Below are positions 2 through 14,148 of a stretch of 64,000 bases of DNA, in pieces. Source of the stretch: an uncultured Acidobacteriota bacterium (GTDB taxonomy: Bacteria; Acidobacteriota; Polarisedimenticolia; J045); assembly GCA_963702425.1 (NCBI GenBank), contig CAVPCQ010000038.1, forward strand, positions 4,992 through 68,991, written 5' to 3'. How positions within the stretch are numbered: position 1 is the first letter of the stretch; the number at the start of each line of letters is the position of its first letter. The notes beneath the pieces are model-generated. The model was not told the origin of the DNA, did not search any database, and saw only the letters and a list, made by a program, of their open reading frames with translations. The position numbers and the translations under genes were made by a program.

Positions 2-1045
2 GCCCGCCCCGCCGCCACGACCGGCCGCGCCGGCGACTTCTCGACCTCGCCCGACATCTCGCCGGACTTCGGCCGGCGGCTGGCGGTCCAGGCGGCGGAG
101 GTCTGGGAGCGGCTGGGCGGCGGGCCGTGGCAACTGGTCGAGCTGGGACCCGGCCGGGGACTGCTCGCCGGAGACCTGCTCGACGGCCTCGAGCGGCACG
201 CCCCGGCGGCGCGCGCCGCGCTGACGGAGCTGGTGCTGGTCGAGCCCAGCGAGACGCTGCGCGCGGCCCAGTCGGAGCGGCTGCGCGCGGCGCACCCCGG
301 GCTTTCCCTGCGCTGGGCCGCCTCGCCCGCCGAGCTGGCGCCCGGATCGATCACGGGGGTCGTGGTCGGCAACGAGGTCCTGGACGCCCTGCCCACGCAC
401 TGGCTCGCCCGGCGCGAGCACGGGCTGGTCGAGCGCTGCGTCGCGGTCGGCGCGGACGGCGCGCTGGCGCTGGCCGACGGGCCGCTCTCGGACCCCCGGC
501 TGGCCGGGCGCGTGGCGCGCTACGGCCTGCTCGCGCGCGTCGGGGACGACGCCGAGATCTGCCTCGCGCTCGAGGAACTCATCTCCGCGACCGCCCGCGC
601 CCTGGCGCGCGGCGCGGTCCTGTTCATCGACTACGGCCACCCCGCGGCCCGGCTGGCGGACGAGGACCACGCCGACGGCACCCTGCTCGCATACCACGGG
701 CACCAGGTCGTCTTCGATCTGCTCGCCCGCCCCGGTGAGCAGGACATCACCGCCCACGTCAACTGGGACCACTGCGTGGACGCCGCGATCGAGGCCGGGC
801 TGACCCCCTGCGGCCGGACCCGGCAGGAGCGGTTCCTGTTGGCGCTCGGGCTGCTCGAGGACCTCTTGCTCGATCCCGAGCCGGGGGCGATGGCGCCCGC
901 GGAGCAGGCCCGCCGCCTGGCCGCCCGCGCGCTGATCATGCCCGGGCTGGGGGGCGGCACCCGATTCGAGGTCGTCGGCTTCGTCCGGGGGCTTCCGGCC
1001 GACCTGCGCGGCTTCGGCGACCCCTTGGCCGGGATGCCGGTTTAG
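2..1045 (+). CDS. SAM-dependent methyltransferase, MidA/NDUFAF7 (DUF185) family; 5' end cut by the window edge
   Basis: The frame is open from the window edge to TAG 1043-1045. The translation (...GDFSTSPDISPDFGRRLA...WQLVELGPGRGLLAGDLLDGL...IDYGH...) shows the GDF.TSP..S and ELGPG.G signatures of this family. The track ORF 233..1045 is its internal part. Confidence 0.75.
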   Translation, partial: ARPAATTGRAGDFSTSPDISPDFGRRLAVQAAEVWERLGGGPWQLVELGPGRGLLAGDLLDGLERHAPAARAALTELVLVEPSETLRAAQSERLRAAHPGLSLRWAASPAELAPGSITGVVVGNEVLDALPTHWLARREHGLVERCVAVGADGALALADGPLSDPRLAGRVARYGLLARVGDDAEICLALEELISATARALARGAVLFIDYGHPAARLADEDHADGTLLAYHGHQVVFDLLARPGEQDITAHVNWDHCVDAAIEAGLTPCGRTRQERFLLALGLLEDLLLDPEPGAMAPAEQARRLAARALIMPGLGGGTRFEVVGFVRGLPADLRGFGDPLAGMPV

Positions 1046-1106
1046 CGGAAGAATGGCGCTCTTTTGGGCCGACCACGCCCGGCCCTCCGCCCGAGGACTC
1101 CCGACG

Positions 1107-2852
1107 ATGAGCACCGACGCCACGACCGCCTCCCCCGTCCACGGCCTGTTCCTCGGGGAACTCGCCGACGAGCTGGTCTACCCCTACCCGGAGCAGGAGG
1201 CCGACCAGCGCGAGACGACCGACCAGGCGGTCGAGGCCTTCCGCGATTGGGCGCGCGACAACGTCGATGCGCGGGCGATCGACGCCGCCCAGGAGATCCC
1301 CGAGGCGGTGCGCGACGGGATGGCCGAGCTGGGGATCATGGGGATGACGGTCCCCGAGGAGTACGGCGGCTACGGCTTCGGGATGACCGGCTACTGCCGG
1401 ATGGTCGAGGAGCTGACCCGCAACGACGCCTCGCTCTCGGTCTACGTCGGCGCGCACCTGTCGATCGGCGCGCGGCCGATCATCCTCTACGGCTCACCCG
1501 CGCAGCAAGCGAAGATCCTGCCCGGGGTCGCCAGCGGCGAGACGCTCTGCGCTTTCGCGCTGACCGAGCCGGGAGCGGGCTCCGACGCCGGCTCGATGCG
1601 CACGCGCGCGGAGTGGGACGCCGCGAAAGGCGTCTACCGGATCAACGGCAACAAGATCTGGATCACCAACGGCGGCTACGCGAAGCTGTTCACGGTCTTT
1701 GCGCGCGGCTCGGGCGGACCGGCGGGAGAAGGGGAGGGGTTCTCCGCCTTCATGGTGCGGCGCGGCACGCCCGGCTTCACCAACGGCCCGTCGGAGCACA
1801 AGCTCGGGATCCGCGGCACCTCGACCACGGAGCTGGCCTTCGTCGACGTCGAGGTCCCGCCGGAGGATCGCGTCGGACCGTGGGGCGAGGGGTTCAAGAT
1901 CGCGCTCCAGTCGCTCGAGACCGGACGGCTGTCGCTCGGCGCCGGCTGCACCGGCGGGGCCAAGGAGATGGTGCGCCTGGCGGTCGAGCACGCGCGCGAG
2001 CGGCGGCAGTTCCGCCACCCGATCATCGAGTTCGGGATGATCCGCGAGAAGCTGGGCCGGATGGCGGCGTCGGCCTTCGGCGCGGAGTCGGCGGTCTATC
2101 TCGCATCGGGGCTCTACGACGCGAAGCGGGCCGACGTCGGCGTCGAGGCCGGCTACTGCAAGGTGCTGGGCTCCGAGACGCTCTGGCAGGCGGTCAACGA
2201 CACGATCCAGGTCACGGGCGGGATCGGCTACATGACCGAGTACCCCTACGAACGGCACCTGCGCGACAGCCGGATCAACCTGATCTTCGAGGGGACGAAC
2301 GAGATCCTGCGGCTGTCGGCCACGCTGGAAGCGCTCAAGGAGCCGGGCCGCCGCGTGACCGAGGCGATCAAGGCGGAGAAGGCCGAGATCGGCGCGGCGG
2401 GCCTGGTGGCGGCGATGGCGGTCGAGGGGATGCCGTCGGGCCGCACCGCCGGGGGAGCGCGCAGCCTGCGCTGGGTCACGCCCGCGCTCGCGCGCGACGC
2501 CGAGCAGTTCGCCGCGGCGCTGGCGCTGTTCGGCGAGACCGTGCGCGCGACGCTGAGAAAGCACCGCCGCGCGATCCTCGGCGCGCAGTACACGATCCGG
2601 CGGCTCGCCGACGCCGCGATCCAGCTCTACGCGGCGGCGGCGGCCCTCTCCCGCGCCAGCACGCTGGCGCGCGACAAGGGCGAGGACGGCGCGCGGCGCG
2701 AGATCCTGCTCGCCCGACGCTTCGTCGACGAGGCGACCCGCCGCGTGCGCCACGAGCTGGACGTCGTGGACGGCACGCGCGACGCGCTGGACGACGAGAT
2801 CGCGGGGCTGTTGGCGATCGAGGGGCGCTACCCCTCGCCGCTCTTCACCTAG
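1107..2852 (+). CDS. acyl-CoA dehydrogenase, long form with C-terminal extension (VLCAD/ACAD9-like architecture)
   Basis: Track ORF 1053..2852; ATG 1107 (MSTDATT) is the more plausible start. Motifs seen: TEPGAGSDAGS, KIWITNGG, QVTGGIGYM..YPYERHLRDSRINLIFEGTNEI. About 180 aa follow the ACAD core. Confidence 0.85.
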   Translation: MSTDATTASPVHGLFLGELADELVYPYPEQEADQRETTDQAVEAFRDWARDNVDARAIDAAQEIPEAVRDGMAELGIMGMTVPEEYGGYGFGMTGYCRMVEELTRNDASLSVYVGAHLSIGARPIILYGSPAQQAKILPGVASGETLCAFALTEPGAGSDAGSMRTRAEWDAAKGVYRINGNKIWITNGGYAKLFTVFARGSGGPAGEGEGFSAFMVRRGTPGFTNGPSEHKLGIRGTSTTELAFVDVEVPPEDRVGPWGEGFKIALQSLETGRLSLGAGCTGGAKEMVRLAVEHARERRQFRHPIIEFGMIREKLGRMAASAFGAESAVYLASGLYDAKRADVGVEAGYCKVLGSETLWQAVNDTIQVTGGIGYMTEYPYERHLRDSRINLIFEGTNEILRLSATLEALKEPGRRVTEAIKAEKAEIGAAGLVAAMAVEGMPSGRTAGGARSLRWVTPALARDAEQFAAALALFGETVRATLRKHRRAILGAQYTIRRLADAAIQLYAAAAALSRASTLARDKGEDGARREILLARRFVDEATRRVRHELDVVDGTRDALDDEIAGLLAIEGRYPSPLFT

Positions 2853-2860
2853 GAGGCCGG

Positions 2861-3646
2861 ATGGCGCTTCTCGACGGAAAGTACGGGCTGCTCCTCGGGA
2901 TCGCGAACGAGCGCTCCTACGCCTGGCACATCGCGCAGGCGCTCGAGGAAGCCGGCGCGGAGCTGGCGTTCAACGCCCTGCCCGGCGAGAAGAACGAGGC
3001 CCGCACGCGCTTCGCCGTCGACGCGCTGAACATCCCCGACCCCTGGATCCGTCCCTGCGACGTGGCCCGGGACGAAGACATCGACCGGCTCTTCGAGGCC
3101 TACGCAAAGGATTTTCCGCGGCTCGACTTCGTCGTCCACTCGGTCGCCTTCGCCGACCGCGAGTACCTGCAGCCCGGCAAGTTCATCGAGACCCCGCGGG
3201 CCTCGTTCCTGATGGCGCTGGACATCTCGGTCTACTCGCTGATCGCCGTCGCGCGGCGCGCGCGGCCGCTCCTGGCCGCGGCCGGCGGCGGCTCGATCAC
3301 GACGATGAGCCACTACGGCGGCGACAAGGTCTTCCCGGGCTACAACGCGATGGGCGCCTGCAAGGCGGCGCTCGAGGCCAGCGTCCGCTACCTGGCCGAG
3401 GAGCTGGGCGCGGAGAAGATCCGCGTCAACGCGATCTCCGGCGGGGCGTTCAAGACCCTCGCGGCGTCGGGGATCGGCGGGCTCAAGTCGATGCTCGCCG
3501 AGTCCGAGCGCCGTTCCCCGCTGCGGCGCGGTGTCGAGGGGGTCGACGTCGGCGGGACGGCGGTCTACCTGGCCTCGGAGCTCTCCTCCGGAGTCACCGG
3601 CGAGACGATCTTCGTCGACTGCGGGATGAACATCCTCGGCGCCTGA
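2861..3646 (+). CDS. fabI: enoyl-[acyl-carrier-protein] reductase (NADH), FabI type
   Basis: 261 aa, with AGGAGG 5 nt upstream of ATG 2861. Motifs seen: GIANERSYAW, the SDR catalytic Y-x6-K (YNAMGACKAALE), and RVNAISGG..KTLAASGI. It is hidden inside shadow ORF 1064..3646. Confidence 0.85.
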   Translation: MALLDGKYGLLLGIANERSYAWHIAQALEEAGAELAFNALPGEKNEARTRFAVDALNIPDPWIRPCDVARDEDIDRLFEAYAKDFPRLDFVVHSVAFADREYLQPGKFIETPRASFLMALDISVYSLIAVARRARPLLAAAGGGSITTMSHYGGDKVFPGYNAMGACKAALEASVRYLAEELGAEKIRVNAISGGAFKTLAASGIGGLKSMLAESERRSPLRRGVEGVDVGGTAVYLASELSSGVTGETIFVDCGMNILGA

Positions 3647-3677
3647 ACCTCGGGCGCAGTCGGGGGACGGCGGCAGG

Positions 3678-6600
3678 ATGGTCCCGACCCAAGCGGTCCT
3701 GGCGTGGCTCCACCGCACCTTCGCGCTGCGCCGCGGGGAGGGCCGCCGCGCCCTGCTGCTGACCGTCTACCTGGGCGTCGTGATCGCCTCGTACCTGATC
3801 CTGAAAGCGGTTCGCGACGCGCTCTTCATCGCCGCCTTCAGCGCGATGAAGCTGCCCTACGTCATCTTCGGCATCGCGCTCCTGGTGGGCGTGTTCGTCG
3901 ACGTCTACATCAGGATCTCGCGCCGCGTCCCGGCGGCGCGGCTGATCACCTGGACGCTGGCCCTGTTCATCTCGAATCTCCTGGCGTTCTGGGTCCTGGC
4001 GCGGATGGGCTTCACCTGGCTCTTTCCGCTGCTCTATATCTGGGTCGGCTTCTTCGGGGTCGCGGCGCCGGTCCAGGTCTGGACGCTGGCCAACGAGGTC
4101 TTCACGACGCGCGAGGCGAAGCGCGTCTTCGGCATCGTCGGCGGCGGCGGGATCACGGGGGCGATCATCGGCGGCGCGATCGCCAGCGTGCTGGCGATCG
4201 AGATCGGGACCGAGCAGCTGCTGCTGGTGGTCGCGCTGCTGCTGGTGGCCTGCATCGTCCTGGTGCACTGGATCGCGCGCTACCGGTTGCCGGTGCTGCG
4301 CGAGCGGCGGGATGAGGTCCTCCCGTGGAACCTGGCGATCAGCGCGCGGCGGGTGCGGAGTTCCCCGCACCTGCGGGTGCTGGCGGCGCTGGTCTTCGTC
4401 GGCGCGCTGGCCACGACGATCGTCGATTTTCAGTTCAAGGCGGCGGCCGGCGGTGCGGGATTCACCCGCGACGAGCTGACGGCGTTCTTCGCGGCGACCC
4501 TGTCGGCGATGTCGCTGGTCGGCCTCGTCGTCCAGCTCGGGATCGTCCGGCCCGTGCTCCGGTCGCTCGGGTTGGGGGCGGCGATCCTGGTCCTGCCGTT
4601 CTCGCTGCTGCTCGGCGAGTCGACGCTGATCGTGCTGGGCAGCCTGTGGGCCGCGGTCTTCATGAAGGCCAGCGACGGCGCGTTCAAGCACTCGATCGAC
4701 CGCTCGAGCAAGGAGCTGGCCTACCTGCCGGTCCCGGTCGAGATCAAGTTCCAGGTCAAGTCGGCGATCGACATGGTGCTCGATCGGCTGGGGGACGCGA
4801 CGGGCGGCCTGGTCCTGCTCGTGCTCGCGACCTGGCTCGGCTTCTCGATCGTCACGATCGGCTGGGTCAACCTTGCTCTGCTCGGGGCCTGGCTGTTGCT
4901 GGCGCGCCGGCTGCGGCAGTCGTACGTCGACGAGCTGGCGACCTCGATCGGGGCCAAGAGCGCGCGCGCCAGCTACGAGTTGGACGCCTCGCTGATCGAC
5001 GCCGACGCGCGCGCCGGGCTGCGGCGCGCGCTGACCGCCGCCGACCCGCAGACGATCGGGATCGCGCTCGAGCTGGCGTCGCTCTCCCCCGGCAGCGACC
5101 TCGAGCCGGAACTGGCCCAGCTCGCGCAGCACGAGAGCCCGGAGGTCCGCGCGCGCGTGCTGGGTGTGTTCCTCGCACCGGGCGGGTCCGGGCTGCCGCC
5201 CGAGCTGCTCGACCGGCTCGAGGAGGCCGACCACGACCTGCTCGCCAAGGGGCTCGACCTGGTGCTGGCGACGACGCCCGAAGAGCGCCGCGAGCGAGCC
5301 ACGGCGCTGCTCGGCAAGCGTCGGCCCGACACGCAGGGCGTGATGCTGGCGCTGCTGGTGCGGCGGCTCGGCCCCGACTTCGCGCCGGTCGCGGCGCACG
5401 TGCTGGACGGGATGATCGCGGCCGACGCGCCGGCCTCGCTGCGTCGCGCCGCGGCCTCGGCGCTGGGGATGCTCCCCGCCGACTCGGCCCTGGCCGGCAA
5501 GCTCGACGCGCTGCTCGACGACCCCGAAACGGAGGTGCGGGCCCAGGCGGCAGAGAGCGCGGGGCGCCTCGGTCGCAGCGACCTGGTCCCGCGCCTGGTC
5601 GAGCTGCTCGGCTCCCACCGCACGCGACCGCCGGCGCACCGGGCGCTGGTGGCGCTCGGGGGGGAAGCGATCCCGGCTCTCGGGGCAGCCCTCGCCCGGC
5701 AGCGGGGCACCCCCGCTTCGGGCTCGTCGCCGGAGTCGGCGGCCCTGCGGCACGTCCCGGCGGTGCTGCGCGCGATCGGCTCCTCGGGCGCGATCGCGCT
5801 GCTGGTCGACAGCCTCGGCCACCCCGACGAGTTCGTGCGCGAGGCCTCGATCCACGCCGTCGAGCGGTTGCGCGAGCGCGACCCGGAGAACCTGCTGGCG
5901 GGCCCGGAGCTGGTCGATCCCGAGATTGCCGCCGACGGCGAGCGCCACGCCTGGATCCTCGGCCACTACGCGGCAGCCGCGGCCGAGACCGGCCCGGTGG
6001 CCGAGTTCCTCGCCGCGCGGCTGCGCGAGCACCTGGCGCGGGTGCGGCGCCGCGTCCTGTCGCTGCTCCGGATGCGGCTCGGGCCGCGCTCGGCCCAGGC
6101 CGTGGCCCGCGGCCTCGAGTCGGGACGCCCCGACCTGCGCGACAACGCGCTCGAGCTGCTCGACTCGGCCCTGCCGCGCTCGCTGCGCGCCTCGGTCGTG
6201 CCGATGCTGGAGGAGGAGCCGGCGGCGGTGCTCGAGATGCGTGCCGGGGAGCCGATCGGTTACCCTTCCCCGCGCCGCGCGCAGCTGCTGCGCGAGCTGG
6301 CGCTCGGGGCCGACCCGTGGCTCGCGGCCGCGGCGCTGCGGGTGGCCGCGGAGAGCGGGCTGGGCTGGGTCGAGGAGGTCGCGTCGCGCCGCCGCGACCA
6401 CGCGGCCACGGTCCTGGGCGAGGAAGCGCGGCGCGCGATGCGGAGGCGGGGTGGAGCCGAGGGGGAGGGACCGGGCGTGACGATGTCGCTCCTCGATCGC
6501 GCCGTGGCGCTGCGCGCGGTCGACGCCTTCCGCGGCGTCACCACCGATCAGCTCGCGCTGATCGCCGCGATCGCGGCCGAGCAGGTCCTTCCCGAGGGGA

Positions 6601-6893
6601 GCCTGCTGTTCGAGGAGGGGGCGCTCCCCGACAGCCTGTTCGTGGTCCTCGACGGCACCGTGTCGCTCATGCGCCAGGGCGCCCCGATGGGCACCGTCGC
6701 CGCCGGAGAAGCACTCGGCACATGGTCGCTGCTCGACGACGAGCCGCGCTCCGCGCGCGCCGTCGCGGCCACGCCGGTCCGGGTGCTGACGATCGAGCGC
6801 GAAGACTTCTACGACGTGCTCGCCGAGCACAGCGAGATCAGCCGCAGCCTGATGCGCGACCTCGTCGGACGGCTGCGCGAGCTGGCGCACTGA
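3678..6893 (+). CDS. multidomain membrane protein: TLC/Npt-type (ATP:ADP antiporter-like MFS) transporter domain + HEAT-like repeats + C-terminal cyclic-nucleotide-binding domain
   Basis: 1071 aa. The N-terminal ~430 aa are polytopic, with the LRRGEG..LL..YL..I.SYLILKAVRDALF opening typical of Npt1/Npt2-family carriers. The middle is Ala/Leu/Arg-rich helical repeats (..ESPEVRARV.., ..DPETEVRAQAAESAGRLG.., ..HPDEFVREASIHAVERL..). The C-terminus (~6510-6890) carries GSLLFEEGALPDSLFVVLDGTV...AAGEALGTWSLLD..PRSA.A.A, a cNMP-binding fold. Confidence 0.7.
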   Translation: MVPTQAVLAWLHRTFALRRGEGRRALLLTVYLGVVIASYLILKAVRDALFIAAFSAMKLPYVIFGIALLVGVFVDVYIRISRRVPAARLITWTLALFISNLLAFWVLARMGFTWLFPLLYIWVGFFGVAAPVQVWTLANEVFTTREAKRVFGIVGGGGITGAIIGGAIASVLAIEIGTEQLLLVVALLLVACIVLVHWIARYRLPVLRERRDEVLPWNLAISARRVRSSPHLRVLAALVFVGALATTIVDFQFKAAAGGAGFTRDELTAFFAATLSAMSLVGLVVQLGIVRPVLRSLGLGAAILVLPFSLLLGESTLIVLGSLWAAVFMKASDGAFKHSIDRSSKELAYLPVPVEIKFQVKSAIDMVLDRLGDATGGLVLLVLATWLGFSIVTIGWVNLALLGAWLLLARRLRQSYVDELATSIGAKSARASYELDASLIDADARAGLRRALTAADPQTIGIALELASLSPGSDLEPELAQLAQHESPEVRARVLGVFLAPGGSGLPPELLDRLEEADHDLLAKGLDLVLATTPEERRERATALLGKRRPDTQGVMLALLVRRLGPDFAPVAAHVLDGMIAADAPASLRRAAASALGMLPADSALAGKLDALLDDPETEVRAQAAESAGRLGRSDLVPRLVELLGSHRTRPPAHRALVALGGEAIPALGAALARQRGTPASGSSPESAALRHVPAVLRAIGSSGAIALLVDSLGHPDEFVREASIHAVERLRERDPENLLAGPELVDPEIAADGERHAWILGHYAAAAAETGPVAEFLAARLREHLARVRRRVLSLLRMRLGPRSAQAVARGLESGRPDLRDNALELLDSALPRSLRASVVPMLEEEPAAVLEMRAGEPIGYPSPRRAQLLRELALGADPWLAAAALRVAAESGLGWVEEVASRRRDHAATVLGEEARRAMRRRGGAEGEGPGVTMSLLDRAVALRAVDAFRGVTTDQLALIAAIAAEQVLPEGSLLFEEGALPDSLFVVLDGTVSLMRQGAPMGTVAAGEALGTWSLLDDEPRSARAVAATPVRVLTIEREDFYDVLAEHSEISRSLMRDLVGRLRELAH

Positions 6894-6915
6894 GCCGGCA
6901 GGGCAAGGGGAGACG

Positions 6916-7380
6916 ATGACGGAACCGGGGAACGAGAAGGCGCAGCTGCTGGTCGTCGACGACGACGTCCTGGTCACGCGCACGCTGTCCTTCCTCTTCG
7001 CGGGCCAGGACGACTTCGCGGTCCAGATGTTCAATGATCCGCGCGCGGCGCTGCAGCACCTCGAGAGCCACTCCGTCGACGTCGTCGTCGCCGACTACCT
7101 GATGCCGGGGATGGACGGGCTGCAATTCCTGTCCGAGGTGCGCCGGACGCACCCTGCGGCGAGCCGGATCATCCTCACCGGCTACGCCGACAAGGACGCG
7201 GCGATCCGCGCGATCAACGAGGTCGGCCTCTACCACTTCCTCGAGAAGCCGTGGCGCAACGAAGAGCTGCTGCTGATCCTGCGCCACGCGGCCGAGCGGG
7301 CGCGGCTCGTGTCCGAGCTGGAGCGCCGTACCGGCGACATTGCCGCCTTCCGCGAGAAGCTGTTCCGGGCCCTCCTGTGA
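6916..7380 (+). CDS. response regulator, stand-alone receiver domain
   Basis: 154 aa with AAGGGGAG upstream. Receiver signatures seen: LLVVDDD, VVVADYLMPGMDG, IILTGY, EKPW. Confidence 0.85.
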   Translation: MTEPGNEKAQLLVVDDDVLVTRTLSFLFAGQDDFAVQMFNDPRAALQHLESHSVDVVVADYLMPGMDGLQFLSEVRRTHPAASRIILTGYADKDAAIRAINEVGLYHFLEKPWRNEELLLILRHAAERARLVSELERRTGDIAAFREKLFRALL

Positions 7381-8561
7381 CCGAGCCGCTCGCGGCTTGC
7401 CAGGAGCTGTTCGAGGGGCACGTCGACCCCGGTGCCCTGCTCGATGCCGGCCTCGCCGTCCTCGTGCAGAACGCCGCCGCGCGCGGGGTGTTCGGCGAAG
7501 GCGTGGGCCGGCCCTGCTACGCGCTGCACTTCGGCCGCGAGGCGCCGTGTCCCGGCTGCCGCGCCGCGGAAGTGACCCACGACGGCGCGGCGCTGCGCTG
7601 GATGATGGAGGTTGCCGGGGAGTTTCCAGGGGCGGCGCGATCCGGGGTGTGGGAGGTGACACTCATCCCGGTGAAGGATGCCGCCGGGCGCGTCACCCGG
7701 TTCGTCGAGCTGCTGCGCGACGCGACGCTGAGCCTCGGGCTGGAGCAGCATCTGATCGAACTGGCGCGGGGCCTCGACCTCGAGATTGCCCGTCGCACCA
7801 CCGAAGCCGGGGAGTTGACCCAGCGCGCGCGCGCACTGCAGGCCGAGATCGAGCGCCTCACCGAGGAGGAGGCGGATCTGCTCCGGACCGAGCGGATGGC
7901 GGCGCTGGGGCGGGTCGTTGCCGGCGTGGCGCACGAGATCCACACCCCCCTCGGCGCGATCCTCTCGACGCTGGAGATGGTCCGGGCGCGACTGGCCGAC
8001 GGGCGGGCCGACGAGCTGAGCGAACTGGTCGAACTGATGCAGGACGCCGGCGAACGGATCCGTAAGGTGGTCCGCACGCTGCGCGTCTTCTCGCGCCTCG
8101 ACGCCGCGCAGATCGAGACGGTGGACATCCACGAGGGGCTGGAGTCGTCGCTGCACCTGCTGGCGCACGAGATGCAGCCCCGGGTGGCGGCCCTGTGCGA
8201 GTACGGCGAGACCCCGCGGGTCCGCTGCCGGCCGGACCAGATCAACCAGATCTTCCTGAATATCCTGCGGAACGCCGTGCAGGCGATCGAAGGACAGGGC
8301 ACCATCACGGTGCGTACGTTCGCGCACGAGGGTGCGGCCGTGGTCGAGATCGAGGACACCGGGCCCGGGATCGCCGCCGAGAACCTGGAGCGGGTCTTCG
8401 AGGCCGGGTTCACGACCAAACCCCGCGGCGAGGGGACGGGCTGGGGCCTGTCGATCTGCCGGCGGATCGTGCACGAGCACGGCGGTGAGATCGCCGTGCG
8501 CAGCACGGTCGGGCGCGGCACGACGTTCCGCATCACGCTGCCGATCGAGGGACCGCCATGA
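7377..8561 (+). CDS. sensor histidine kinase (PAS-like N-terminus with four Cys, HisKA, HATPase_c)
   Basis: GTG 7377 overlaps the receiver gene's stop (GTGA). Motifs seen: H-box RMAALGRVVAGVAHEIHTPLGAI, N-box FLNILRNAVQA, G1 EDTGPGI, G2 GTGWGLSI. The N-terminal segment contains RPCYALHFGREAPCPGCRAAEV. The track ORF (7251) starts inside the upstream gene. Confidence 0.8.
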   Translation: MTEPLAACQELFEGHVDPGALLDAGLAVLVQNAAARGVFGEGVGRPCYALHFGREAPCPGCRAAEVTHDGAALRWMMEVAGEFPGAARSGVWEVTLIPVKDAAGRVTRFVELLRDATLSLGLEQHLIELARGLDLEIARRTTEAGELTQRARALQAEIERLTEEEADLLRTERMAALGRVVAGVAHEIHTPLGAILSTLEMVRARLADGRADELSELVELMQDAGERIRKVVRTLRVFSRLDAAQIETVDIHEGLESSLHLLAHEMQPRVAALCEYGETPRVRCRPDQINQIFLNILRNAVQAIEGQGTITVRTFAHEGAAVVEIEDTGPGIAAENLERVFEAGFTTKPRGEGTGWGLSICRRIVHEHGGEIAVRSTVGRGTTFRITLPIEGPP

Positions 8562-10555
8562 GTTGCCCGCCCCGACGCCTCCCGTCCCTGCTCTCCTTCG
8601 TGCTCACCGCCGCGGCGGTGGGTATCGCGACGGTCCCGGCTTCGCGCGCCGGCGCGCCCGGAGACCCTCCGACGTGGCGCTACGCCGGGGTCGAGCGCGT
8701 CGTCGCGATCGGCGACGTCCACGGCAGCTACGAGCCGCTGGTCGAGGTGCTGCGCGCCGCGGGGCTGATCGACGAGGCGCTGGCCTGGAGCGGCGGCAAG
8801 GCGCACCTCGTGATGCTCGGCGACCTCGTCGACCGCGGTCCGAAGGAGCGCGAGGTGCTGGACCTCGTCATGCGGCTCGAACGCGAGGCGCCGGAAGCCG
8901 GCGGCCAGGTGCACGTGCTGCTCGGCAACCACGAGGTGATGAACCTGGTCGGCGACCTGCGCTACGTCTCGAAGGCCGGCTACGCCGAGTACGCCGAGGC
9001 GACCCCGCCCAGGGAGCGCGAACAGGCGCTGGCCCGCTTCATGCGGTCCGGCGGCGGCGCGGAGACCGGCCCCGAGGGGGTGCTGCCGCGGTTCAACGAG
9101 CTCTACCCGCCCGGGTACTTCGAGCGACAGAAGGCCTTCTCGGCGAGCGGCGCCTACGGCCGCTGGCTGCTCTCGAAGTCCTTCATCCTCGTGATCGACG
9201 ACGTCGCGTACGTGCACGGCGGCCTGCCGCCGAGCGTGGCCTCGGAGGGCGCGGAGGCACTCAACCGGTCGCTGATGCAGGAGATCCAGGCCTACATCAA
9301 GGCGCGCGAGACGCTGATCGAGGCCGGTCTGCTCGACCCGGAGACGAGCTTCGTCGAGTCGTTCCAGCGGGTCGGGCAGAAGGTGGAAGAGGCCGAGGCC
9401 AAGGGGCAGGCGCTGCCGGAGGCGTCTGCGAAGGCGGCCGAGACCCTGCTGGCGAGCGCGGGCGCCTACGCCTTCAGCAATGAGAACCCGTTCTGGTACC
9501 GCGGCACGTCGCTCAACCCCGAGCCGCAGGAACTGCCGGCCTTCGAGGCGGCGCTGGCGAAGCTGGGCGCGAAGTCGGTGGTCGTCGGACACACCACCAC
9601 CCCCGGCGGGCGGATCACCTCGCGCTTCGGCGGGCGCCTGCTGCGCGCGGACACGGGGATGCTGAGCGAGGTCTACCGCGGCCGCGGCGCGGCGGTCGTG
9701 GCGGAGGGCGGGACGCGGCGGACGCTCTACCCCGGCGACCCGGCGGACACCAAGCCCGTTCCCGAGACGAAGGAGGAGCCGGGTCCGATCGTCGCCCAGG
9801 GGATGCCTGACGCAGCGCTCGAGACCTTCCTGAAGACCGCCGACGTGGTCAAGATCGAGGACATCGGCTCCGGCATCACCCGGCCCAAGCGGCTGTCGCT
9901 GCAGAAGGACGGCGTTTCACGGCGCGCGGCGTTCAAGTACGTCGACGAGACGTTCGACTCGACGGTGCGCATCGCCGGCCGCCTGGAGATGCAGTTCAAC
10001 GACCGTTACATCTACGACGTCGCGGCCTACCGGCTCGACCGGCTGCTCGAGATGGACATGGTGCCGGTCGCGGTCGAGCGGACGGTCGACGGTACCGCGG
10101 GGGCGGTGCAGGACTGGATCGAGAACGCGATCGACGAGGGGCGGCGTGTGACCGAGAAGCTCGAGCCCTATGACGCCGAGTCCTTCAAGCGCCAGACCCA
10201 GGTGATGCGCGTCTTCGACGCGCTGATCTACAACGCGGACCGCAACCAGGGGAACATCCTCTACACCCCCGGGGACTGGAAGCTGCACCTGATCGACCAC
10301 ACGCGCGCGTTCCGGCTCGGCACGGGGCGCCCGCCGGGCCTCGTCGACGTGCCACTCGTGATCGAGCCCGAGCTGCGCGTGCGGCTCGCGGCACTGAACG
10401 AGGAGCAGTTGAAGTCGGCCCTCGGTGGCCTGCTGAGCAACGCGCAGATCGGCGCGATCCTGAAGCGCCGCGACAAGCTGCTGGCGGAGACGGTGCCGAA
10501 GGCGGCGCCCAAGGCACCGGCCAGCGCCGCGCCGGCCGTGAAGCGCGCCTCGTAG
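8558..10555 (+). CDS. secreted fusion protein: calcineurin-like (Shewanella-like/PPP-type) metallophosphoesterase + C-terminal PI3/PI4-kinase-like (protein-kinase-fold) domain
   Basis: ATG 8558 overlaps the kinase gene's stop (ATGA). Signal peptide: LLSFVLTAAAVGIATVPASRA. Phosphoesterase motifs: AIGDVHGSY, MLGDLVDRGP, LLGNHEVMN, VHGG, VVVGHT. The C-terminal ~225 aa (about 9800-10477) carry FDALIYNADRNQGNILY (10217-10261) and LIDHTRAF (10289-10312). These resemble the catalytic and activation segments of type II PI4K-like kinases. Confidence 0.7.
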   Translation: MSCPPRRLPSLLSFVLTAAAVGIATVPASRAGAPGDPPTWRYAGVERVVAIGDVHGSYEPLVEVLRAAGLIDEALAWSGGKAHLVMLGDLVDRGPKEREVLDLVMRLEREAPEAGGQVHVLLGNHEVMNLVGDLRYVSKAGYAEYAEATPPREREQALARFMRSGGGAETGPEGVLPRFNELYPPGYFERQKAFSASGAYGRWLLSKSFILVIDDVAYVHGGLPPSVASEGAEALNRSLMQEIQAYIKARETLIEAGLLDPETSFVESFQRVGQKVEEAEAKGQALPEASAKAAETLLASAGAYAFSNENPFWYRGTSLNPEPQELPAFEAALAKLGAKSVVVGHTTTPGGRITSRFGGRLLRADTGMLSEVYRGRGAAVVAEGGTRRTLYPGDPADTKPVPETKEEPGPIVAQGMPDAALETFLKTADVVKIEDIGSGITRPKRLSLQKDGVSRRAAFKYVDETFDSTVRIAGRLEMQFNDRYIYDVAAYRLDRLLEMDMVPVAVERTVDGTAGAVQDWIENAIDEGRRVTEKLEPYDAESFKRQTQVMRVFDALIYNADRNQGNILYTPGDWKLHLIDHTRAFRLGTGRPPGLVDVPLVIEPELRVRLAALNEEQLKSALGGLLSNAQIGAILKRRDKLLAETVPKAAPKAPASAAPAVKRAS

Positions 10556-10606
10556 CCGGCGTCCCGAGCCGGCCCGCGCGGCCGCCGCGGGTCCAGGAGG
10601 CTGTCC

Positions 10607-11647
10607 GTGAGCGACCGCGCACGCCCGTGGCGACGGTTGGCGCTGAACACGCTCCTCGTGGTCGCGTCGGTGGCCATCGCGCTCGGGCTTGTCGACCTCC
10701 TGCTGATCGTCACGCACACCCCTGTCCACGGACCGATCTGGGAGGCTCAGGGGCTCTTCCGCCTCGATCGGGAGCTGATCTACTCGCTGGTCCCCGGTAA
10801 GAAACGGGTCTGGCGCACCGACGAGTTCGCGGAGCAGGCCTCCATCAACCGGGAGGGGCTGCGGGGCGCCGAGCTTCGGGAACGACGGGGGATCGACTCG
10901 CGCATCATCGTGACCGGCGACTCCGTCGTCTTCGGCCACGGCGTCGGCGACGGAGAGGCCTTTCCGAAGCAGCTCGAGGCGATCTTCGCGTCCGAGGGCC
11001 GCAACGTCGAGGTGCTCAACGCGGGCGTGAAAGGCTACGGCACCGACCAGTCGTTCAAGTCCTTCGATCGTCGCCTGCAGGCCCTGAAACCGGATGTCCT
11101 GGTGTTCGCCGTCAACACCAACGACGTGGCCGACAACATCCGGCAACCGCTCTATACCGTGCAGGACGGCCGGCTTCGCGAGCTCGACGCAACGCGCAAC
11201 CCGTTCTACCGGGTCGTCTGGCTCGATTCGCACCTCCCGGGGGCCGTCCGCCGCACCGACCTGTACGGGCGGCTCGTCACCCGGCTGCTCCGCGCCGACT
11301 GGGATCGCGCGCTTCCCGACAGCGACCCCGATCGGCTCAAGGCGTGGTCCCGGGAGAAGGTCGTGCTGGAGATTGAGTCGCTTCACGACCGGTCCCGGTC
11401 GGCCGGCTTCCGGCTCGTCGTGCTGGGGCTCCCCAGCACGGCGCCCAACGCGTTCCGATGGCTGCGGTCGAGCCTGCCCGAGGGCGTCGATTTCCTCGAC
11501 GCGAACGAGGTCGAAGCCTGGGCGAGCGAACCGTCCCGGTGGTTCCTGAACGACCGGACTCACCTCACCGTGGCCGGCAACGAGCGGCTCGCCCAGCGGC
11601 TCTACGCCCACCTGCTCGACACGGAGAGCCCCGCCACCGCACCATAG
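10607..11647 (+). CDS. SGNH/GDSL-family hydrolase with N-terminal membrane anchor
   Basis: 346 aa, with AGGAGG 6 nt upstream of GTG 10607. TM helix: LALNTLLVVASVAIALGLVDLLLIV. Block I is IIVTGDSVVFGHG. Later blocks (AGVKGYGT; FLNDRTHLTVAGNERLA) fit the SGNH layout. Confidence 0.6.
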   Translation: MSDRARPWRRLALNTLLVVASVAIALGLVDLLLIVTHTPVHGPIWEAQGLFRLDRELIYSLVPGKKRVWRTDEFAEQASINREGLRGAELRERRGIDSRIIVTGDSVVFGHGVGDGEAFPKQLEAIFASEGRNVEVLNAGVKGYGTDQSFKSFDRRLQALKPDVLVFAVNTNDVADNIRQPLYTVQDGRLRELDATRNPFYRVVWLDSHLPGAVRRTDLYGRLVTRLLRADWDRALPDSDPDRLKAWSREKVVLEIESLHDRSRSAGFRLVVLGLPSTAPNAFRWLRSSLPEGVDFLDANEVEAWASEPSRWFLNDRTHLTVAGNERLAQRLYAHLLDTESPATAP

Positions 11648-11702
11648 GACAGCCGTCGCGTCGAATGCGTGGTGGCGAGGCCGGGCCAACTCCGGGGTGG
11701 AC

Positions 11703-13543
11703 ATGACGGTGCACGACTCGCCAGCCTTCATCCTCGGGATCTCGGCCTTCTACCACGATTCCGCCGCCTGTCTCGTGCAGGATGGCCGGATCGTCGCTGC
11801 GGCCCAGGAAGAACGCTTCACGCGCCGGAAGCACGACGCGGGATTCCCGCGGCACGCGATCGACTACTGCCTGCGCGAGGCGCGCATCGGCCCGGACCGG
11901 CTGACCGCGGTCGCCTTCTACGACAAGCCGTGGATCAAGTTCGAGCGGCTGCTCGAAACCTACCTCGCGTTCGCGCCCGGCCGGTCGTGTCCTCCTTCCT
12001 GAAGAGCATGCCGCTCTGGCTGAAGCAGAAGCTCTGGATCGGCGACCTGATCGCGCGCGAGCTGGGCTACGACGGCGATCTGCTCTTCCCGGAGCACCAC
12101 CAGTCGCACGCCGCGTCCGCCTTCTTCCCGTCTCCCTTCGAGCGAGCCGCGTTCCTGACGATGGACGGGGTGGGGGAGTGGGCCACCGCTTCCTGGGGCG
12201 TCGGGCACGGCAACCGGGTCGAGATCTCGCACGAGCTGCGCTTCCCGCACAGCCTCGGCCTGCTCTACAGCGCCTTCACCTACTACACCGGCTTCAAGGT
12301 CAACTCGGGGGAGTACAAGGTGATGGGGCTAGCGCCCTACGGCGAGCCCCGGTACGCCGGGCTGATCTACGACCACCTCCTCGACCTGCGCGAGGACGGC
12401 TCGTTCCGCCTCAACATGGAGTACTTCAACTACTGCCAGGGCCTGACGATGACCTCGGAGCGGTTCCACCGGCTCTTCGGCGGCCCGCCGCGGGCGGCGG
12501 AGTCCGAGGTCACGCAGCGCGAGATGGACCTCGCCCGCTCGCTGCAGGACGTCACCGAGGAGGTCATGCTGCGGATGGCGCGCCACGTGCGGAAGGCGAC
12601 CGGGGAGCGGAACCTGTGCCTCGCCGGCGGCGTCGCGCTCAACTGCGTCGGGAACGGGAGAATCCTGCGAGAGCGAGTGTTCGACCGGCTGTGGATCCAG
12701 CCCGCCGCCGGTGATGCCGGAGGCGCCCTCGGCGCCGCGCTCTTCGCCTGGCACCAGGTCCGCGGCGAGCCCCGCCGCGCGGACCCGGGTCGCGACAGCC
12801 AGTCGGGCTCGTACCTCGGACCCGCGTTTCCCGGCGATGCGATCCGGCAGTGGCTCGACGGTGCGGGCATTCCGTACCGCACGCACTCCCCGTCCGAGAT
12901 CCCGGGCCTCGCGGCCGAACTGATTGCGCAGGAGAAGGTCGTGGGGTGGTTCTCCGGGCGGATGGAGTTCGGGCCCCGGGCGCTGGGGGCCCGGAGCATC
13001 CTCGGGGACGCCCGCAGCCCGAAGATGCAGTCGGTCCTGAACCTCAAGATCAAGTTCCGGGAGTCGTTCCGCCCCTTCGCGCCATCCTGCCTGGTCGAGG
13101 ACGTGTCGGAGTACTTCGAGCTGGAGGTCGAGTCGCCGTACATGCTCCTCGTCGCGCCGGTCGTCGAGACGCGACGGCTCGCGATGAGCGCGGAGCAGTC
13201 GGCGCTGTTCGGGATCGAGAAGCTCAACGTCCCGCGCAGCGACATCCCCGCGGTGACGCACGTCGACTACTCGGCGCGCGTGCAGACGGTCGACGCCCGC
13301 GATCACGCGCAGTACCACGAGCTGATCCGTGAGTTCAAGCGGCGGACCGGGTACGGGGTCATCATCAACACGTCGTTCAACGTCCGCGGCGAGCCGATCG
13401 TCTGCACGCCGCAGGATGCCTACCTGTGCTTCATGCGGACGCAGATGGACGCGCTGGTGCTGGAGGACTGCGTGCTGCTCAAGGAAGAGCAGCCGCCGCT
13501 GAAGGACGACGTCGACTGGAGATCGCAGTATGGCCTCGACTGA
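11703..13543 (+). pseudogene. carbamoyltransferase (NodU/CmcH family), reading frame interrupted by a -1 shift near 11976-11992
   Basis: The first ~100 aa (frame of 11697..12002) read MTVHDSPAFILGISAFYHDSAACLV...FERLLETYLAFAP. The remaining ~515 aa (frame of 11669..13543) read ..SFLKSMPLWLKQKLW..HHQSHAASAFF..GEYKVMGLAPYG... Together they are the two halves of one enzyme. The first frame hits TGA at 12000. The switch lies in gcgcccggccgg (C/G runs). This may be an assembly indel. Confidence 0.8.
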
Positions 13544-13958
13544 GGGGATCGGCCTGCCGGCGAGGCCCGCGACGCGCAGCGGCCGCGAGCTGCGGACGTT
13601 CGGGCTGGTGATGGCGGGAGCGTTCGGCGCGCTGGGTGGCCTGGCGGCGTGGCGCGGCCGGTCCGCCGGGCCGGTCCTGCTCGGCGTGGCGGCCGCCTTC
13701 CTGCTGCTCGGGCTGGCCTTGCCGCGGCTCCTCCGGCCCGTCGAGAAGGCCTGGATGGCGGTCGCGCGGGTGATGGGCGTCGTGATGACGCACGTCATCC
13801 TGACGCTCTTCTACTACCTCGTGATCACACCGTTCGGAATCGCGATGCGGATCGCCGGCCGCGACCCCCTGGGGCTGAAGGCGGCCCCGGCGCGCGAGTC
13901 CTTCTGGGAAGCGGTCGATCCGCAGGGATCGGCCTCCCGCCCGGACAAGCCCTATTGA
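13530..13958 (+). CDS. SxtJ-family small membrane protein
   Basis: 142 aa, overlapping the carbamoyltransferase stop by 14 nt. It has two or three hydrophobic helices and the ..LL.P.EK.WM..A..MG...T.VIL...YYLVITP.G...R..G.DPL pattern I associate with SxtJ proteins found next to carbamoyltransferases. Confidence 0.6.
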   Translation: MASTEGIGLPARPATRSGRELRTFGLVMAGAFGALGGLAAWRGRSAGPVLLGVAAAFLLLGLALPRLLRPVEKAWMAVARVMGVVMTHVILTLFYYLVITPFGIAMRIAGRDPLGLKAAPARESFWEAVDPQGSASRPDKPY

Positions 13959-13989
13959 GCCGGAGCCAGCGGCGGGAGAGAATCCGGAC

Positions 13990-14148
13990 ATGCCGGCTGT
14001 GAAGAACCTGTGGATGATCTGGGACTTTCTCCGGGTCCGGAAGAAGTTCTGGCTGCTCCCGATCGTGGCGCTGCTCCTGCTCTTCGGGCTGCTGATCGTC
14101 CTGACCGAGGGCTCGGCGCTCGCGCCGTTCATCTACACGCTGTTCTGA
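13990..14148 (+). CDS. DUF5989-family small membrane protein (52 aa); not in the supplied ORF track
   Basis: My own translation is MPAVKNLWMIWDFLRVRKKFWLLPIVALLLLFGLLIVLTEGSALAPFIYTLF*. This is the W.FLR.RKKFWLLPI....LL.G.LIVL..GSA.APFIYTLF pattern characteristic of DUF5989, which normally follows SxtJ. It is too short for the track's length cut-off. Confidence 0.6.
   Translation: MPAVKNLWMIWDFLRVRKKFWLLPIVALLLLFGLLIVLTEGSALAPFIYTLF

Follow-up and report, generated by a model that had tools for sequence, protein, structure and literature searches.

The window analysed here, a stretch of DNA of 64,000 nucleotides, encodes a predicted exported fusion of a Shelph-type phosphatase with a Fam20/PI4KII-like kinase-fold domain, and the gene for this fusion shows a conserved linkage to a gene for a TLC-family transporter, which was missed by the initial annotation and is new here. 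Judged by their residues, both domains of the fusion are catalytically intact, and the kinase domain, which is minimal and protein-kinase-like, falls by sequence and fold comparison into a large, unannotated family of bacteria that is sister to the Fam20 secretory-pathway kinases and type II PI4-kinases of eukaryotes. The reading that we favour, at a probability of roughly 55%, is that the fusion acts as a periplasmic phosphorylation/dephosphorylation module coupled to the TLC transporter, possibly for nucleotide supply.

The fusion gene lies at 8558..10555 on the + strand and encodes, from an ATG start, 665 amino acids plus a stop, exactly as initially given from the list of open reading frames (ORFs) and their translations. 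Long spurious ORFs are common in the window because of its GC content of ~72%, and two minus-strand ORFs (7517..9592 and 9917..11731) overlap the gene, with zero Pfam matches where tested. The + strand ORF is a real gene, since public data contain an identical protein (P0265), both halves have significant sequence or structure matches, and at least 2,442 proteins match the fusion at E<=1e-30, all of them annotated as hypothetical or metallophosphoesterase. The joining of a phosphatase and a kinase-fold domain on one protein, initially described as unusual, is thus confirmed as an architecture and is unusual only in being unannotated. The fusion is abundant in Acidobacteriota, Halieaceae, Steroidobacteraceae and Desulfatiglans, and the organisms that carry it are free-living heterotrophs of marine, soil and sediment habitats. 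Clustering at 50% identity divides the kinase family as a whole into 9,081 clusters at E<=1e-3 and 1,267 at the stricter E<=1e-30. On the + strand, the phosphatase domain (8675..9733, aa ~40-392) is followed by an inter-domain linker (9734..9808, aa 393-417; pLDDT 66-74 at residues ~401-420), the compact kinase-fold domain (9809..10492, aa ~418-645, ~230 aa) and an Ala/Pro/Lys-rich C-terminal tail (10493..10552, aa 646-665), which is disordered (pLDDT 49-62, without secondary structure). The full-length AF2 model has a pLDDT of 89.7 and a pTM of 0.73, and the inter-domain geometry is not readable from it.

The N-terminal half is a complete PPP phosphatase of the Shelph type, in agreement with the initial annotation, and among solved structures it stands closest to the cold-active phosphatase of Shewanella, which was deposited as a protein-tyrosine phosphatase. 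The expected motifs are all found in the translation (GDVHG at aa 52-56, GDLVDRG at 88-94, GNHE at 123-126, VHGG at 219-222 and GHT at 344-346), and Pfam Metallophos matches at 6.9e-13 (49.9 bits against a threshold of 21.5). A phmmer search of the PDB returns 2z72/1v73 at 5.8e-32, spanning all catalytic motifs, and the top Foldseek matches are 2zbm/1v73/2z72 (4.5e-20), whereas other PPPs are much weaker (RLPH2 at 9.5e-5; BSU1, ApaH, PP1 and PP2A at 1e-3 or above). Membership of the PPP group is marked by GDxHG, GDxxDRG and GNH[ED] with the metal-ligand Asp, His and Asn residues, and that of the Shelph type by the nearness of the Shewanella enzyme together with the C-terminal GHT (H345) and D365-T366-G367, which fit what we take to be the Shelph definition, GHT plus (I/L/V)D(S/T)G. 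D53, H55, D89, D92, R93, N124, H125, H220, H345 and D365-T366-G367 are at least 90% conserved in the 114 fusions compared, which share ~40% identity. The best NCBIfam matches of this domain are ApaH-type bis(5'-nucleosyl)-tetraphosphatases, below cutoff.

For the C-terminal half a PI3/PI4-kinase-like domain had been proposed, and of this the kinase fold holds and the nearest kin do not, as by sequence Fam20 is closer. Profile and structure searches, the check put forward at the outset, both return a kinase-like domain: a profile of the family matches solved Fam20 structures at 4.1e-11 to 1.1e-5 (Fam20A at 4.1e-11, Fam20C at 4.5e-7) and PI4KII with an E of only 0.008, and Foldseek matches the domain, modelled by AF2 at a pLDDT of 92.6, to PI4KII at an E of ~1e-7. 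None of the Pfam and NCBIfam models reaches its threshold on this domain. Pfam Fam20C (PF06702) scores 11.8 against 26.8 bits and has E<=0.01 in only 23/105 family members, and PI3_PI4_kinase (PF00454) scores 17.4-19.4 against 27.1 bits, with weak matches in 60/105 members (best member E 2.3e-7). The window protein likewise stays below the cutoff of the SCO1664 family (NCBIfam TIGR03843; 39.1 against 172.4 bits) and the gathering threshold of HipA_2 (Pfam PF20613).

The active site can be followed segment by segment through an alignment with Fam20A and Fam20C. AAFKY (aa 457-461), initially likened to the VAIK lysine, carries K460 (codon 9935..9937), which aligns with the β3 lysine of Fam20 'FKP'. 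The segment VAAYRLDRLLEMDMVP is present at aa 488-503, and the reading of 'VAAYRLDRLL...' as the hinge has to be revised: it is helix αC (model helix 485-496), aligned to Fam20 'NAEIAAFHLDRIL'. The catalytic loop FDALIYNADRNQGNILY (10214..10264, aa 553-569), recognised from the start by its D-R-N-x-x-N pattern and with its Asp and Asn positions kept in homologues, contains D554, N559, D561, R562 and N566 and aligns to Fam20 'FDFLIGNMDRHHYE'. D561 falls on the Fam20 'DRHH' Asp, presumably the catalytic Asp458 of Fam20C, 20 residues before the DFG Asp. LIDHTRAF (10289..10312, aa 578-585; D580, H581, R583, F585) is the DFG-equivalent, as first suggested, and D580 aligns to the DFG Asp of Fam20, D430 in Fam20A and D478 in Fam20C (PMC5413348). 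Thus the ATP-binding Lys, the DRHH catalytic Asp and the DFG-equivalent Asp of Fam20 all have counterparts, the Fam20-specific N-terminal segment, insertions, disulfide pattern and DRHHYE loop do not appear in the window domain, and from the PI3/PI4-kinases the domain has the D-R-x-x-x-N loop, the DFG-equivalent metal-binding Asp and a PI4KII-like fold. Position 460 is Lys in 111/114 fusions and Lys or Arg in 88/105 of a mostly stand-alone set, and position 487 is acidic (E/D) in 113/114 fusions. D554, N559 and R562 are invariant and D561, N566, D580 and H581 are at least 90% conserved in the 114 fusions, D580 being also invariant in alignment A1.

When the ORFs of 80 fusion loci were clustered without bias, a single neighbour, the TLC-like gene, proved to be conserved from lineage to lineage, and by HMM it is present in 62/80 of these loci, nearly always adjacent. 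Kinase and TLC genes are arranged in at least six ways, spread over Acidobacteriota, Gammaproteobacteria and Desulfobacterota. At one locus (L071) kinase, phosphatase and TLC-HEAT are three separate adjacent genes, and at two (L068, L073) a kinase that stands alone precedes two TLC-HEAT genes; no TLC neighbour was found at the truly stand-alone homologues P0069, P0103 and P0004. The reciprocal link is partial, as a kinase lies near 23/80 TLC-like metagenome loci and 11/32 of those with enough flank (~1/3), and other members of the transporter subfamily adjoin a Hanks kinase, an RR-PP2C or PPK2. A second, probably exported family of ~576 aa, which has kinase-like motifs and is paired with an Omp85-type barrel, adjoins the same transporter subfamily, and one stand-alone homologue adjoins a TonB-dependent receptor and peptidases.

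In the window, the transporter gene (3678..6893, + strand) encodes 1071 aa with HEAT repeats and a cNMP-binding domain (Pfam TLC, HEAT_2 and cNMP_binding), and the fusion gene belongs to a tight co-directional string that also holds genes for a response regulator and for a histidine kinase. The response regulator (6916..7380, +) lies between transporter and histidine kinase, consists of a receiver domain only (Pfam Response_reg, 7.6e-25) and is not conserved beyond the nearest relatives within the Acidobacteriota (L001-L003, L006). The histidine kinase (7251..8561, +; Pfam HisKA and HATPase_c) has an uncertain start, probably at ~7338, with tblastn coverage beginning at aa 30 in L002/L003, and its TGA stop overlaps the ATG of the fusion in ATGA (8558-8561), through which the two genes are, by their layout, translationally coupled. 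Because of this coupled two-component string and the cNMP-binding domain of the transporter, the activity of the window module is probably regulated.

The window transporter passes Pfam PF03219 TLC with 68 bits against 21 (its relatives and the linked transporters score 38-80 bits) and matches the solved chloroplast NTT1 (PDB 9j3j) at 3.9e-14 over ~300 residues. It falls far below the cutoff of the NTP/NDP-exchanger model (NCBIfam TIGR00769; ~39 against 387.2 bits), so that family membership gives no support for ATP/ADP exchange. The critical charged residues of AtNTT1, which we take to be K155, E245, E385 and K527, were mapped onto the TLC-likes, the mapping being validated by a single offset. 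In the window transporter K527 is replaced by Asp and E245 by Gly, K155 has no counterpart, and only the acid equivalent to E385 is kept, as Asp; of 68 TLC-likes, 57 have Asp at the position of K527, 62 have Gly or Ser at that of E245 and 66 keep the acid equivalent to E385.

In the proposed model, the kinase domain would phosphorylate an envelope or extracellular substrate (protein, glycan or lipid) and the phosphatase domain would dephosphorylate such a substrate, the two together giving a reversible or sequential modification cycle, and the TLC transporter would carry either the nucleotide, as co-substrate or as product, or the modified molecule through the inner membrane. A eukaryotic analogue is the cycle of the Fam20B xylose kinase and 2-phosphoxylose phosphatase. 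The periplasm is commonly regarded as free of ATP and as a place where no ATP-dependent kinase would be expected; movement of a nucleotide by the transporter would address how a kinase works in such a compartment. This supply step is the weak part of the model, because critical NTT residues are missing from the window transporter and only ~1/3 of such transporters adjoin a kinase.

The ATP-free periplasm and the missing NTT-type residues lend some weight to a kinase-like domain that is silent in vivo, serving as a pseudokinase or as a substrate- or ligand-binding module by which the exported phosphatase is targeted or regulated; the protein would then function simply as a phosphatase with a recognition domain. 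Some stand-alone members have lost the K460/E487 pair (K460 to Gln or Ser, E487 to Asn), and in tandem variants of ~900 aa the first kinase-like copy is degenerate, with D561 changed to Ser or falling in a gap; some members of the family thus use the fold in a non-catalytic way, and Fam20A, a pseudokinase of this fold group that binds nucleotide, provides a precedent (PMC5413348). For the fusion we nevertheless consider a silent domain unlikely, since the phosphotransfer residues are all kept in 114 fusions at ~40% identity and one copy in the tandem variants always keeps D561, N566 and D580. Somewhat less probable still is nutrient or nucleotide scavenging, in which the exported domains would process extracellular nucleotides or organophosphates and the TLC-like protein import the product, a nucleotide or related compound, with no envelope modification cycle. 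The ApaH-type matches of the phosphatase, the heterotrophic life of the hosts, the TonB-dependent receptor and peptidases beside one stand-alone homologue and PPK2 near some TLC-likes would suit scavenging, as would the characterised members of the TLC family, which are all known as importers of nucleotides or NAD. It assigns no function, however, to a Fam20/PI4KII-like kinase whose catalytic residues are conserved, would still require an extracytoplasmic phosphoryl donor, and sits poorly with a nearest solved phosphatase that was deposited as a protein-tyrosine phosphatase and with a transporter in which NTT-type substrate residues are not conserved.

The fusion is probably a soluble protein that this diderm Acidobacteriota bacterium exports to its periplasm. 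Its N-terminus, a predicted Sec-type signal peptide (8558..8650, +, aa 1-31), has a basic n-region (RR), a hydrophobic core of ~19 residues and an A-S-R-A | G site, with cleavage guessed after ASRA on heuristic grounds, and the full-length model shows a helix at 9-24 with low pLDDT. By a hydropathy heuristic and visual inspection of the n/h/c layout, on which the export call rests, 86/89 full-length fusion homologues share a basic n-region, a core of 12-20 hydrophobic residues and an AxA-type site directly before the first phosphatase motif, and none of the 89 has a lipobox; by the heuristic, 77/91 stand-alone homologues have a similar hydrophobic stretch. One clade keeps one Cys per domain (59 fusions with both, 0 with a single one and 55 with neither, at pairwise identities down to 39%), which we count in favour of export. 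A cytoplasmic enzyme with cytoplasmic substrates and ordinary ATP, the hydrophobic segment being an uncleaved anchor or irrelevant, could be argued from the coupling to a histidine kinase and from the heuristic nature of the signal peptide call, but is very improbable given the N-terminal layouts, the Cys pair spanning both domains and the positive-inside rule, which puts the domains outside even with an uncleaved anchor.

Even conservatively, a second domain can now be assigned to thousands of proteins that go under the names 'metallophosphoesterase', 'CpdA' or 'hypothetical', within a very large unannotated bacterial family that is probably exported, has intact catalytic residues and Fam20 as its nearest sequence relatives, is often joined to an opposing phosphatase in one protein, and is linked in the genome to a relative of ATP/ADP translocases. 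Should the family prove active, the supply of a periplasmic phosphoryl donor becomes testable in cultured Halieaceae carrying the module, as do a reversibly phosphorylated envelope target and the origin of eukaryotic secretory kinases. A bolder and doubtful extension is a dedicated extracytoplasmic phosphorylation system in diderms of several phyla, in which a divergent TLC transporter, exchanging nucleotides across the inner membrane, would fuel a periplasmic Fam20/PI4KII-like kinase that is often fused to its opposing Shelph phosphatase. Such a system would be the prokaryotic counterpart of the secretory-pathway kinases of eukaryotes, where Fam20 enzymes rely on ATP imported into the ER and Golgi, and might share an evolutionary origin with them, and the ~576-aa family beside the same transporter subfamily would make the principle general.

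Compared with known systems, the fusion-linked transporters differ from the NTT/Tlc carriers of plastids, Chlamydia and Rickettsia (TC 2.A.12) in occurring in free-living hosts, and the acidobacterial forms carry HEAT repeats, the window copy also a cNMP-binding domain. The phosphatase domain keeps the GDxHG, GDxxDRG, GNHE, GHT and DTG motifs of Shelph/SLP (PDB 1v73, 2z72), whereas a helical insertion of ~57 residues (aa ~228-284, from the alignment gap and the model) and the fusion to a kinase domain set it apart from the Shewanella enzyme. Helicobacter pylori CtkA (PDB 3akj), described as a proinflammatory kinase, the cytoplasmic toxin HipA and CotH are clearly more distant from the window kinase domain than Fam20 and PI4KII, and they show neither fusion to a PPP phosphatase nor linkage to a TLC transporter. 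The type II PI4-kinases (PI4KIIα/β) share the D-R-x-x-x-N catalytic loop but are palmitoylated membrane enzymes on the cytosolic face, whereas the window protein is likely exported and soluble. Phosphorylation of proteins and glycans outside the cytoplasm is well established in animals, where Fam20C is the Golgi casein kinase and Fam20B a xylose kinase. The Fam20 proteins (PF06702), the best sequence-level relatives of the window domain among solved structures, share with it the blocks A.FK (β3), E.AA..LDR.L....VP (αC), FD.LI.N.DR (catalytic loop) and.D..R.F (DFG-equivalent), as well as signal sequences (predicted in the bacterial family) and probable action outside the cytosol. A kinome survey treats FAM20 as eukaryote/Metazoa-specific (PMC9758233), whereas the window domain is bacterial, is fused to a phosphatase and has DR...N, as in PI3/4-kinases, where Fam20 has DRHHYE. 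The pairing of Fam20A with Fam20C, finally, resembles the degenerate-plus-intact copies of the bacterial tandem variants.

The fusion of a phosphatase with a kinase-like domain is real, and the interpretation given to it in the initial annotation is supported with corrections. The gene lies at 8558..10555 (+), where the ORF list and the translation recover the ATG start and 665 amino acids described there, with all the quoted motifs present in the relative positions stated. The GC content of the window is ~72%, so that long ORFs arise by chance in all frames; two such frames on the opposite strand overlap the target, at 7517-9592 (-, 691 aa) and 9917-11731 (-, 604 aa), the latter without family matches in Pfam. 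The (+) frame is a real gene, since public data include a protein identical to its product (P0265) and at least 2,442 homologues score at E≤1e-30, the best 120 of which are all full-length. Its nearest loci belong to Acidobacteriota MAGs, at 86-90% identity. Clusters of antisense ORFs in related loci merely shadow the real gene, which is typical for a genome of 72% GC. Rfam gave no match anywhere in the window, nor did a promoter and terminator scan of 800..14000, which carries little information at 72% GC. Judged from sequence and structural models, the product is most aptly viewed as a bifunctional and probably exported enzyme, in which a Shelph (Shewanella-like PPP) phosphatase is joined to a minimal kinase. 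Its most likely mode of action would be a periplasmic phosphorylation and dephosphorylation cycle on an envelope or extracellular substrate, coupled with a divergent TLC-family transporter (a distant relative of ATP/ADP translocases) and, in the organism of the window, placed under two-component and cyclic-nucleotide control.

Export of the protein is predicted, with good support, from the hydropathy and visible layout of its N-terminus: within residues 1-31, a basic n-region precedes a hydrophobic core of ~19 residues, which is followed by an ASRA↓G site, and residues 9-24 form a helix of low confidence in the full-length model. The same layout, without a lipobox, is found in 86 of 89 full-length homologues, and 77 of 91 stand-alone homologues pass a hydropathy test. 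The phosphatase domain (aa ~40-392) is assigned to the Shelph-type PPP phosphatases by phmmer, Foldseek and conserved residues: it matches the Shewanella cold-active phosphatase at 5.8e-32 in phmmer, compared with about 1e-4 or weaker for the remaining PPPs, its best Foldseek E-value is 4.5e-20, and all metal-binding and catalytic residues are conserved across the 114 homologues. In contrast to the Shewanella enzyme, it contains an extra helical insertion of about 57 residues. The NCBIfam ‘Pnkp’ model and ApaH/PrpE were rejected as identities for this domain, as their matches are far under the cutoff and reflect generic metallophosphoesterase similarity.

The kinase-like domain (aa ~418-645) follows a linker modelled with lower confidence. 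No Pfam or NCBIfam model matches it at threshold (HipA_2, PI3_PI4_kinase, Fam20C and TIGR03843 appear below it), and with all threshold tests failed it falls outside every curated family. An AlphaFold model built with 105 homologues as input is of high confidence, with a pLDDT of 92.6 and a pTM of 0.87. In profile-sequence comparison with solved structures, the best matches are Fam20A (4.1e-11), the Fam20B-type xylosylkinase (7.6e-8) and Fam20C (4.5e-7), followed by PI4KIIα at 0.0077; by this comparison, the nearest solved relatives are the Fam20 proteins. One kinome survey treats FAM20 as specific to eukaryotes or Metazoa (PMC9758233).

Active-site residues were mapped with an HMM alignment anchored on Fam20A, in which a chain offset of 88 recovers Lys233 and Met235 as numbered in PMC5413348. 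In this alignment, D580 of the target corresponds to the DFG Asp (Fam20A D430, equal to Fam20C D478), K460 to the β3 lysine of the ‘FKP’ motif, and D561, 20 residues ahead of the DFG Asp, to the Asp of the ‘DRHH’ motif. The latter we take to be the catalytic Asp458 of Fam20C. The segment initially annotated as the hinge is instead helix αC, which bears the acidic residue 487 (E/D), and D482, invariant among the 105 kinase-domain homologues, adjoins the position of an essential Glu (ceFam20 E213). Across 114 fusions, D554, N559 and R562 are invariant, D561, N566, D580, H581 and F585 are at least 90% conserved, K460 is present in 111 and residue 487 is acidic in 113. The kinase-like reading of the C-terminal domain thus stands, as both profile and structure searches return kinase-like matches and the catalytic Asp and Asn positions are conserved. 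The more diverse and mostly stand-alone set of 105 sequences has K or R at position 460 in 88 and E or D at position 487 in 88; given the missing residues, a minority of these may be non-catalytic. Sequence and model together indicate that the domain does have the fold and catalytic apparatus of the Fam20/PI4KII group, and it is best described as the minimal kinase of a new bacterial family, probably sister to Fam20 and PI4KII.

A new lead comes from the gene context, namely the linkage to the TLC-like transporter. The target lies in a tight, co-directional string of genes encoding an acyl-CoA dehydrogenase, an enoyl reductase, the transporter, a response regulator (RR), a histidine kinase (HK), the target, a GDSL lipase and a carbamoyltransferase. 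The transporter (3678..6893, +; 1,071 aa) consists of a TLC domain (~1-450), HEAT repeats (~580-680) and a cNMP-binding domain (~945-1068), a combination that suggests a transporter gated or regulated by cNMP; its relatives in Gammaproteobacteria comprise the transporter alone (~440 aa). The HK stop and the target start overlap in an ATGA at 8558-8561 (+), implying translational coupling, and conservation of the RR-HK pair does not extend beyond the nearest relatives in the Acidobacteriota (L001-L003 and L006). Downstream and co-directional, the GDSL-family lipase, which has a GTG start with an RBS-like GGAGG 8 nt ahead of it, and the NodU/CmcH-type carbamoyltransferase (together 10607-13543, +) are kept only in the closest relative, L001, and are therefore probably outside the module.

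A scan of species-representative genomes with a 13-sequence alignment yielded 79 related loci, giving 80 with the window; in 72 of the 79, the match to the phosphatase is contiguous with that to the kinase-like domain. Cultured strains among the carriers are Parahaliea mediterranea DSM 21924, Seongchinamella sediminis and Pseudohalioglobus lutimaris (loci L016, L018 and L062). All-against-all ORF clustering identified the TLC-like transporter in 67/80 loci as the only neighbour family conserved across lineages, with the runner-up clusters, present in at most 29/80, reflecting synteny within single lineages. An HMM search placed the transporter in 62/80, nearly always directly adjacent, and most of the loci in which it was missed are stand-alone forms, lie on short contigs or belong to a single Halioglobus sub-clade. 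Its position varies with lineage: it may lie upstream with the RR-HK pair between (the clade of the window), directly upstream, or in divergent orientation. In Halieaceae and Desulfatiglans it is the next gene downstream on the same strand, after a gap of roughly 13-140 bp, and in Steroidobacteraceae it is convergent. L071 has three separate genes, a phosphatase and then a TLC-HEAT gene convergent with a stand-alone kinase, and the stand-alone kinase of L068 and L073 precedes a pair of TLC-HEAT genes. A linkage kept despite such rearrangement over three phyla is a classical signature of functional coupling, and we consider it likely (probability about 0.7) that the target is functionally coupled with the transporter. 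An MFS gene beside the stand-alone homologue P0004 belongs to a different subfamily and was rejected as TLC-like. A role in defence was likewise rejected, as PADLOC gave no match for the target and matched the transporter solely via its cNMP-binding domain.

In one model of how the two proteins might cooperate, the transporter would fuel the exported kinase by trading ATP from the cytoplasm for ADP from the periplasm. The transporters score above the Pfam TLC threshold and that of the window aligns with chloroplast NTT1, a solved structure (9j3j), at 3.9e-14, but they reach only ~40 bits against the 387-bit cutoff of the NTP/NDP-exchanger model. The critical charged residues of AtNTT1, which we take to be K155, E245, E385 and K527, could be mapped with confidence, since a single offset places all four on K/E/E/K, and only the acid equivalent to E385 is retained: the K527 equivalent is Asp in 57 of 68 sequences, including that of the window, and Lys in 11, and the E245 equivalent is Gly or Ser in 62/68. 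In Halieaceae and related Gammaproteobacteria, the fusion is followed by two adjoining, back-to-back TLC-like paralogues (L015, L016, L024, L034, L044, L045, L048, L051, L066, L067, L074, L076 and L079; at ~10.7-13.9 kb of most loci and at ~3.7-7.1 kb of L067 and L074). In six loci the proximal copy retains Lys, as in the NTTs, at the equivalent of K527 and is acidic at that of E245, where most TLC-like members have Asp and Gly, respectively; the transporter at L016 10812..12191 is of the Lys type. The distal copy is the longer of the two (~540-590 aa), with a He_PIG Ig-like domain at its C-terminus in L015. Also against fuelling, the kinase is found near only 23 of 80 TLC-like metagenome loci (11 of 32 where the flank suffices), and some truly stand-alone kinases have no TLC neighbour. 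In its favour, members of the transporter subfamily without this kinase as a neighbour often adjoin other phosphoryl-transfer enzymes: in 5 loci a Hanks-type Ser/Thr kinase with a membrane anchor, in 5 a response-regulator-PP2C (SpoIIE) phosphatase and in 3 polyphosphate kinase 2 (PPK2) (L095, L100, L110, L119, L120, L128, L131, L146, L152, L158, L160 and L165). Taken together, canonical ATP/ADP exchange is a possibility that we regard as rather doubtful.

A further exported family without annotation, of ~576 aa, is represented by L152:4393-6120 (+) and by 12 related loci from metagenomes, among them L144:2634-4370 and L107:4030-5820; its gene always neighbours those of an Omp85-type barrel (~429 aa) and a TLC-like transporter. 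Searches of Pfam and of PDB sequences gave no match, and the family conserves the motifs ‘K..G..PGF’, ‘W.NHDD.R..N..D’ and ‘H...DFG...G’ (the last two joined as ‘W.NHDD.R..N..D...H...DFG’) and a ‘KRRD’ helix. In hhalign its D/N/D fall exactly on D561/N566/D580, in an alignment that is not significant (E 0.012, probability 3.5%). From these motifs, it may represent a second exported kinase-like family.

The full-length model of the target (pLDDT 89.7, pTM 0.73) suggests that the domain arrangement is reasonably defined. Among the 114 fusions, a pair of Cys residues, at the equivalents of 320 (phosphatase domain) and 541 (kinase domain), is present in 59 and wholly absent in 55, including the protein of the window; neither Cys is ever found singly. 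Independent co-variation of the pair was dropped as an explanation: the Cys-bearing fusions form one coherent clade, which argues for joint retention, down to 39% identity, and not repeated co-gain. The joint retention suggests that the pair may form an inter-domain disulfide, which would imply that the compartment is oxidising and that the interface between the domains is fixed.

With sequences clustered at 50% identity, an exhaustive profile search returned 9,081 clusters at E≤1e-3, of which 1,267 reach E≤1e-30. Among the best 150, about 45 are fusions (590-800 aa) and the others stand-alone (~270-330 aa). The seemingly stand-alone P0058 (L084 6807-8714) is really a fusion broken by a frameshift or assembly error, with a 150-aa Metallophos fragment, a gap, the kinase-like ORF and then, as its immediate downstream neighbour, a convergent TLC gene. 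Truncations of a similar kind account for several database entries that look ‘stand-alone’ but start within ‘DTGML’. Homologues are labelled ‘hypothetical’, ‘metallophosphoesterase’, ‘calcineurin-like phosphoesterase’ or ‘CpdA’ in their sources, and the kinase domain is recognised in none. The literature searched, with incomplete coverage, yielded no prior description of a Shelph-kinase fusion, of bacterial Fam20-like kinases or of a periplasmic kinase with a nucleotide transporter. Further architectures include P0121 (671 aa), a tandem of two kinase-like domains that lacks the phosphatase and has His in place of K460, and the ~900-aa variants P0122, P0277, P0280 and P0282, in which a phosphatase is combined with two kinase-like domains. 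In these variants, the first copy has Ser or a gap in place of D561 and Asp in place of N566, and the second retains D561, N566 and D580, a pseudokinase-kinase tandem that recalls the pairing of Fam20A with Fam20C.
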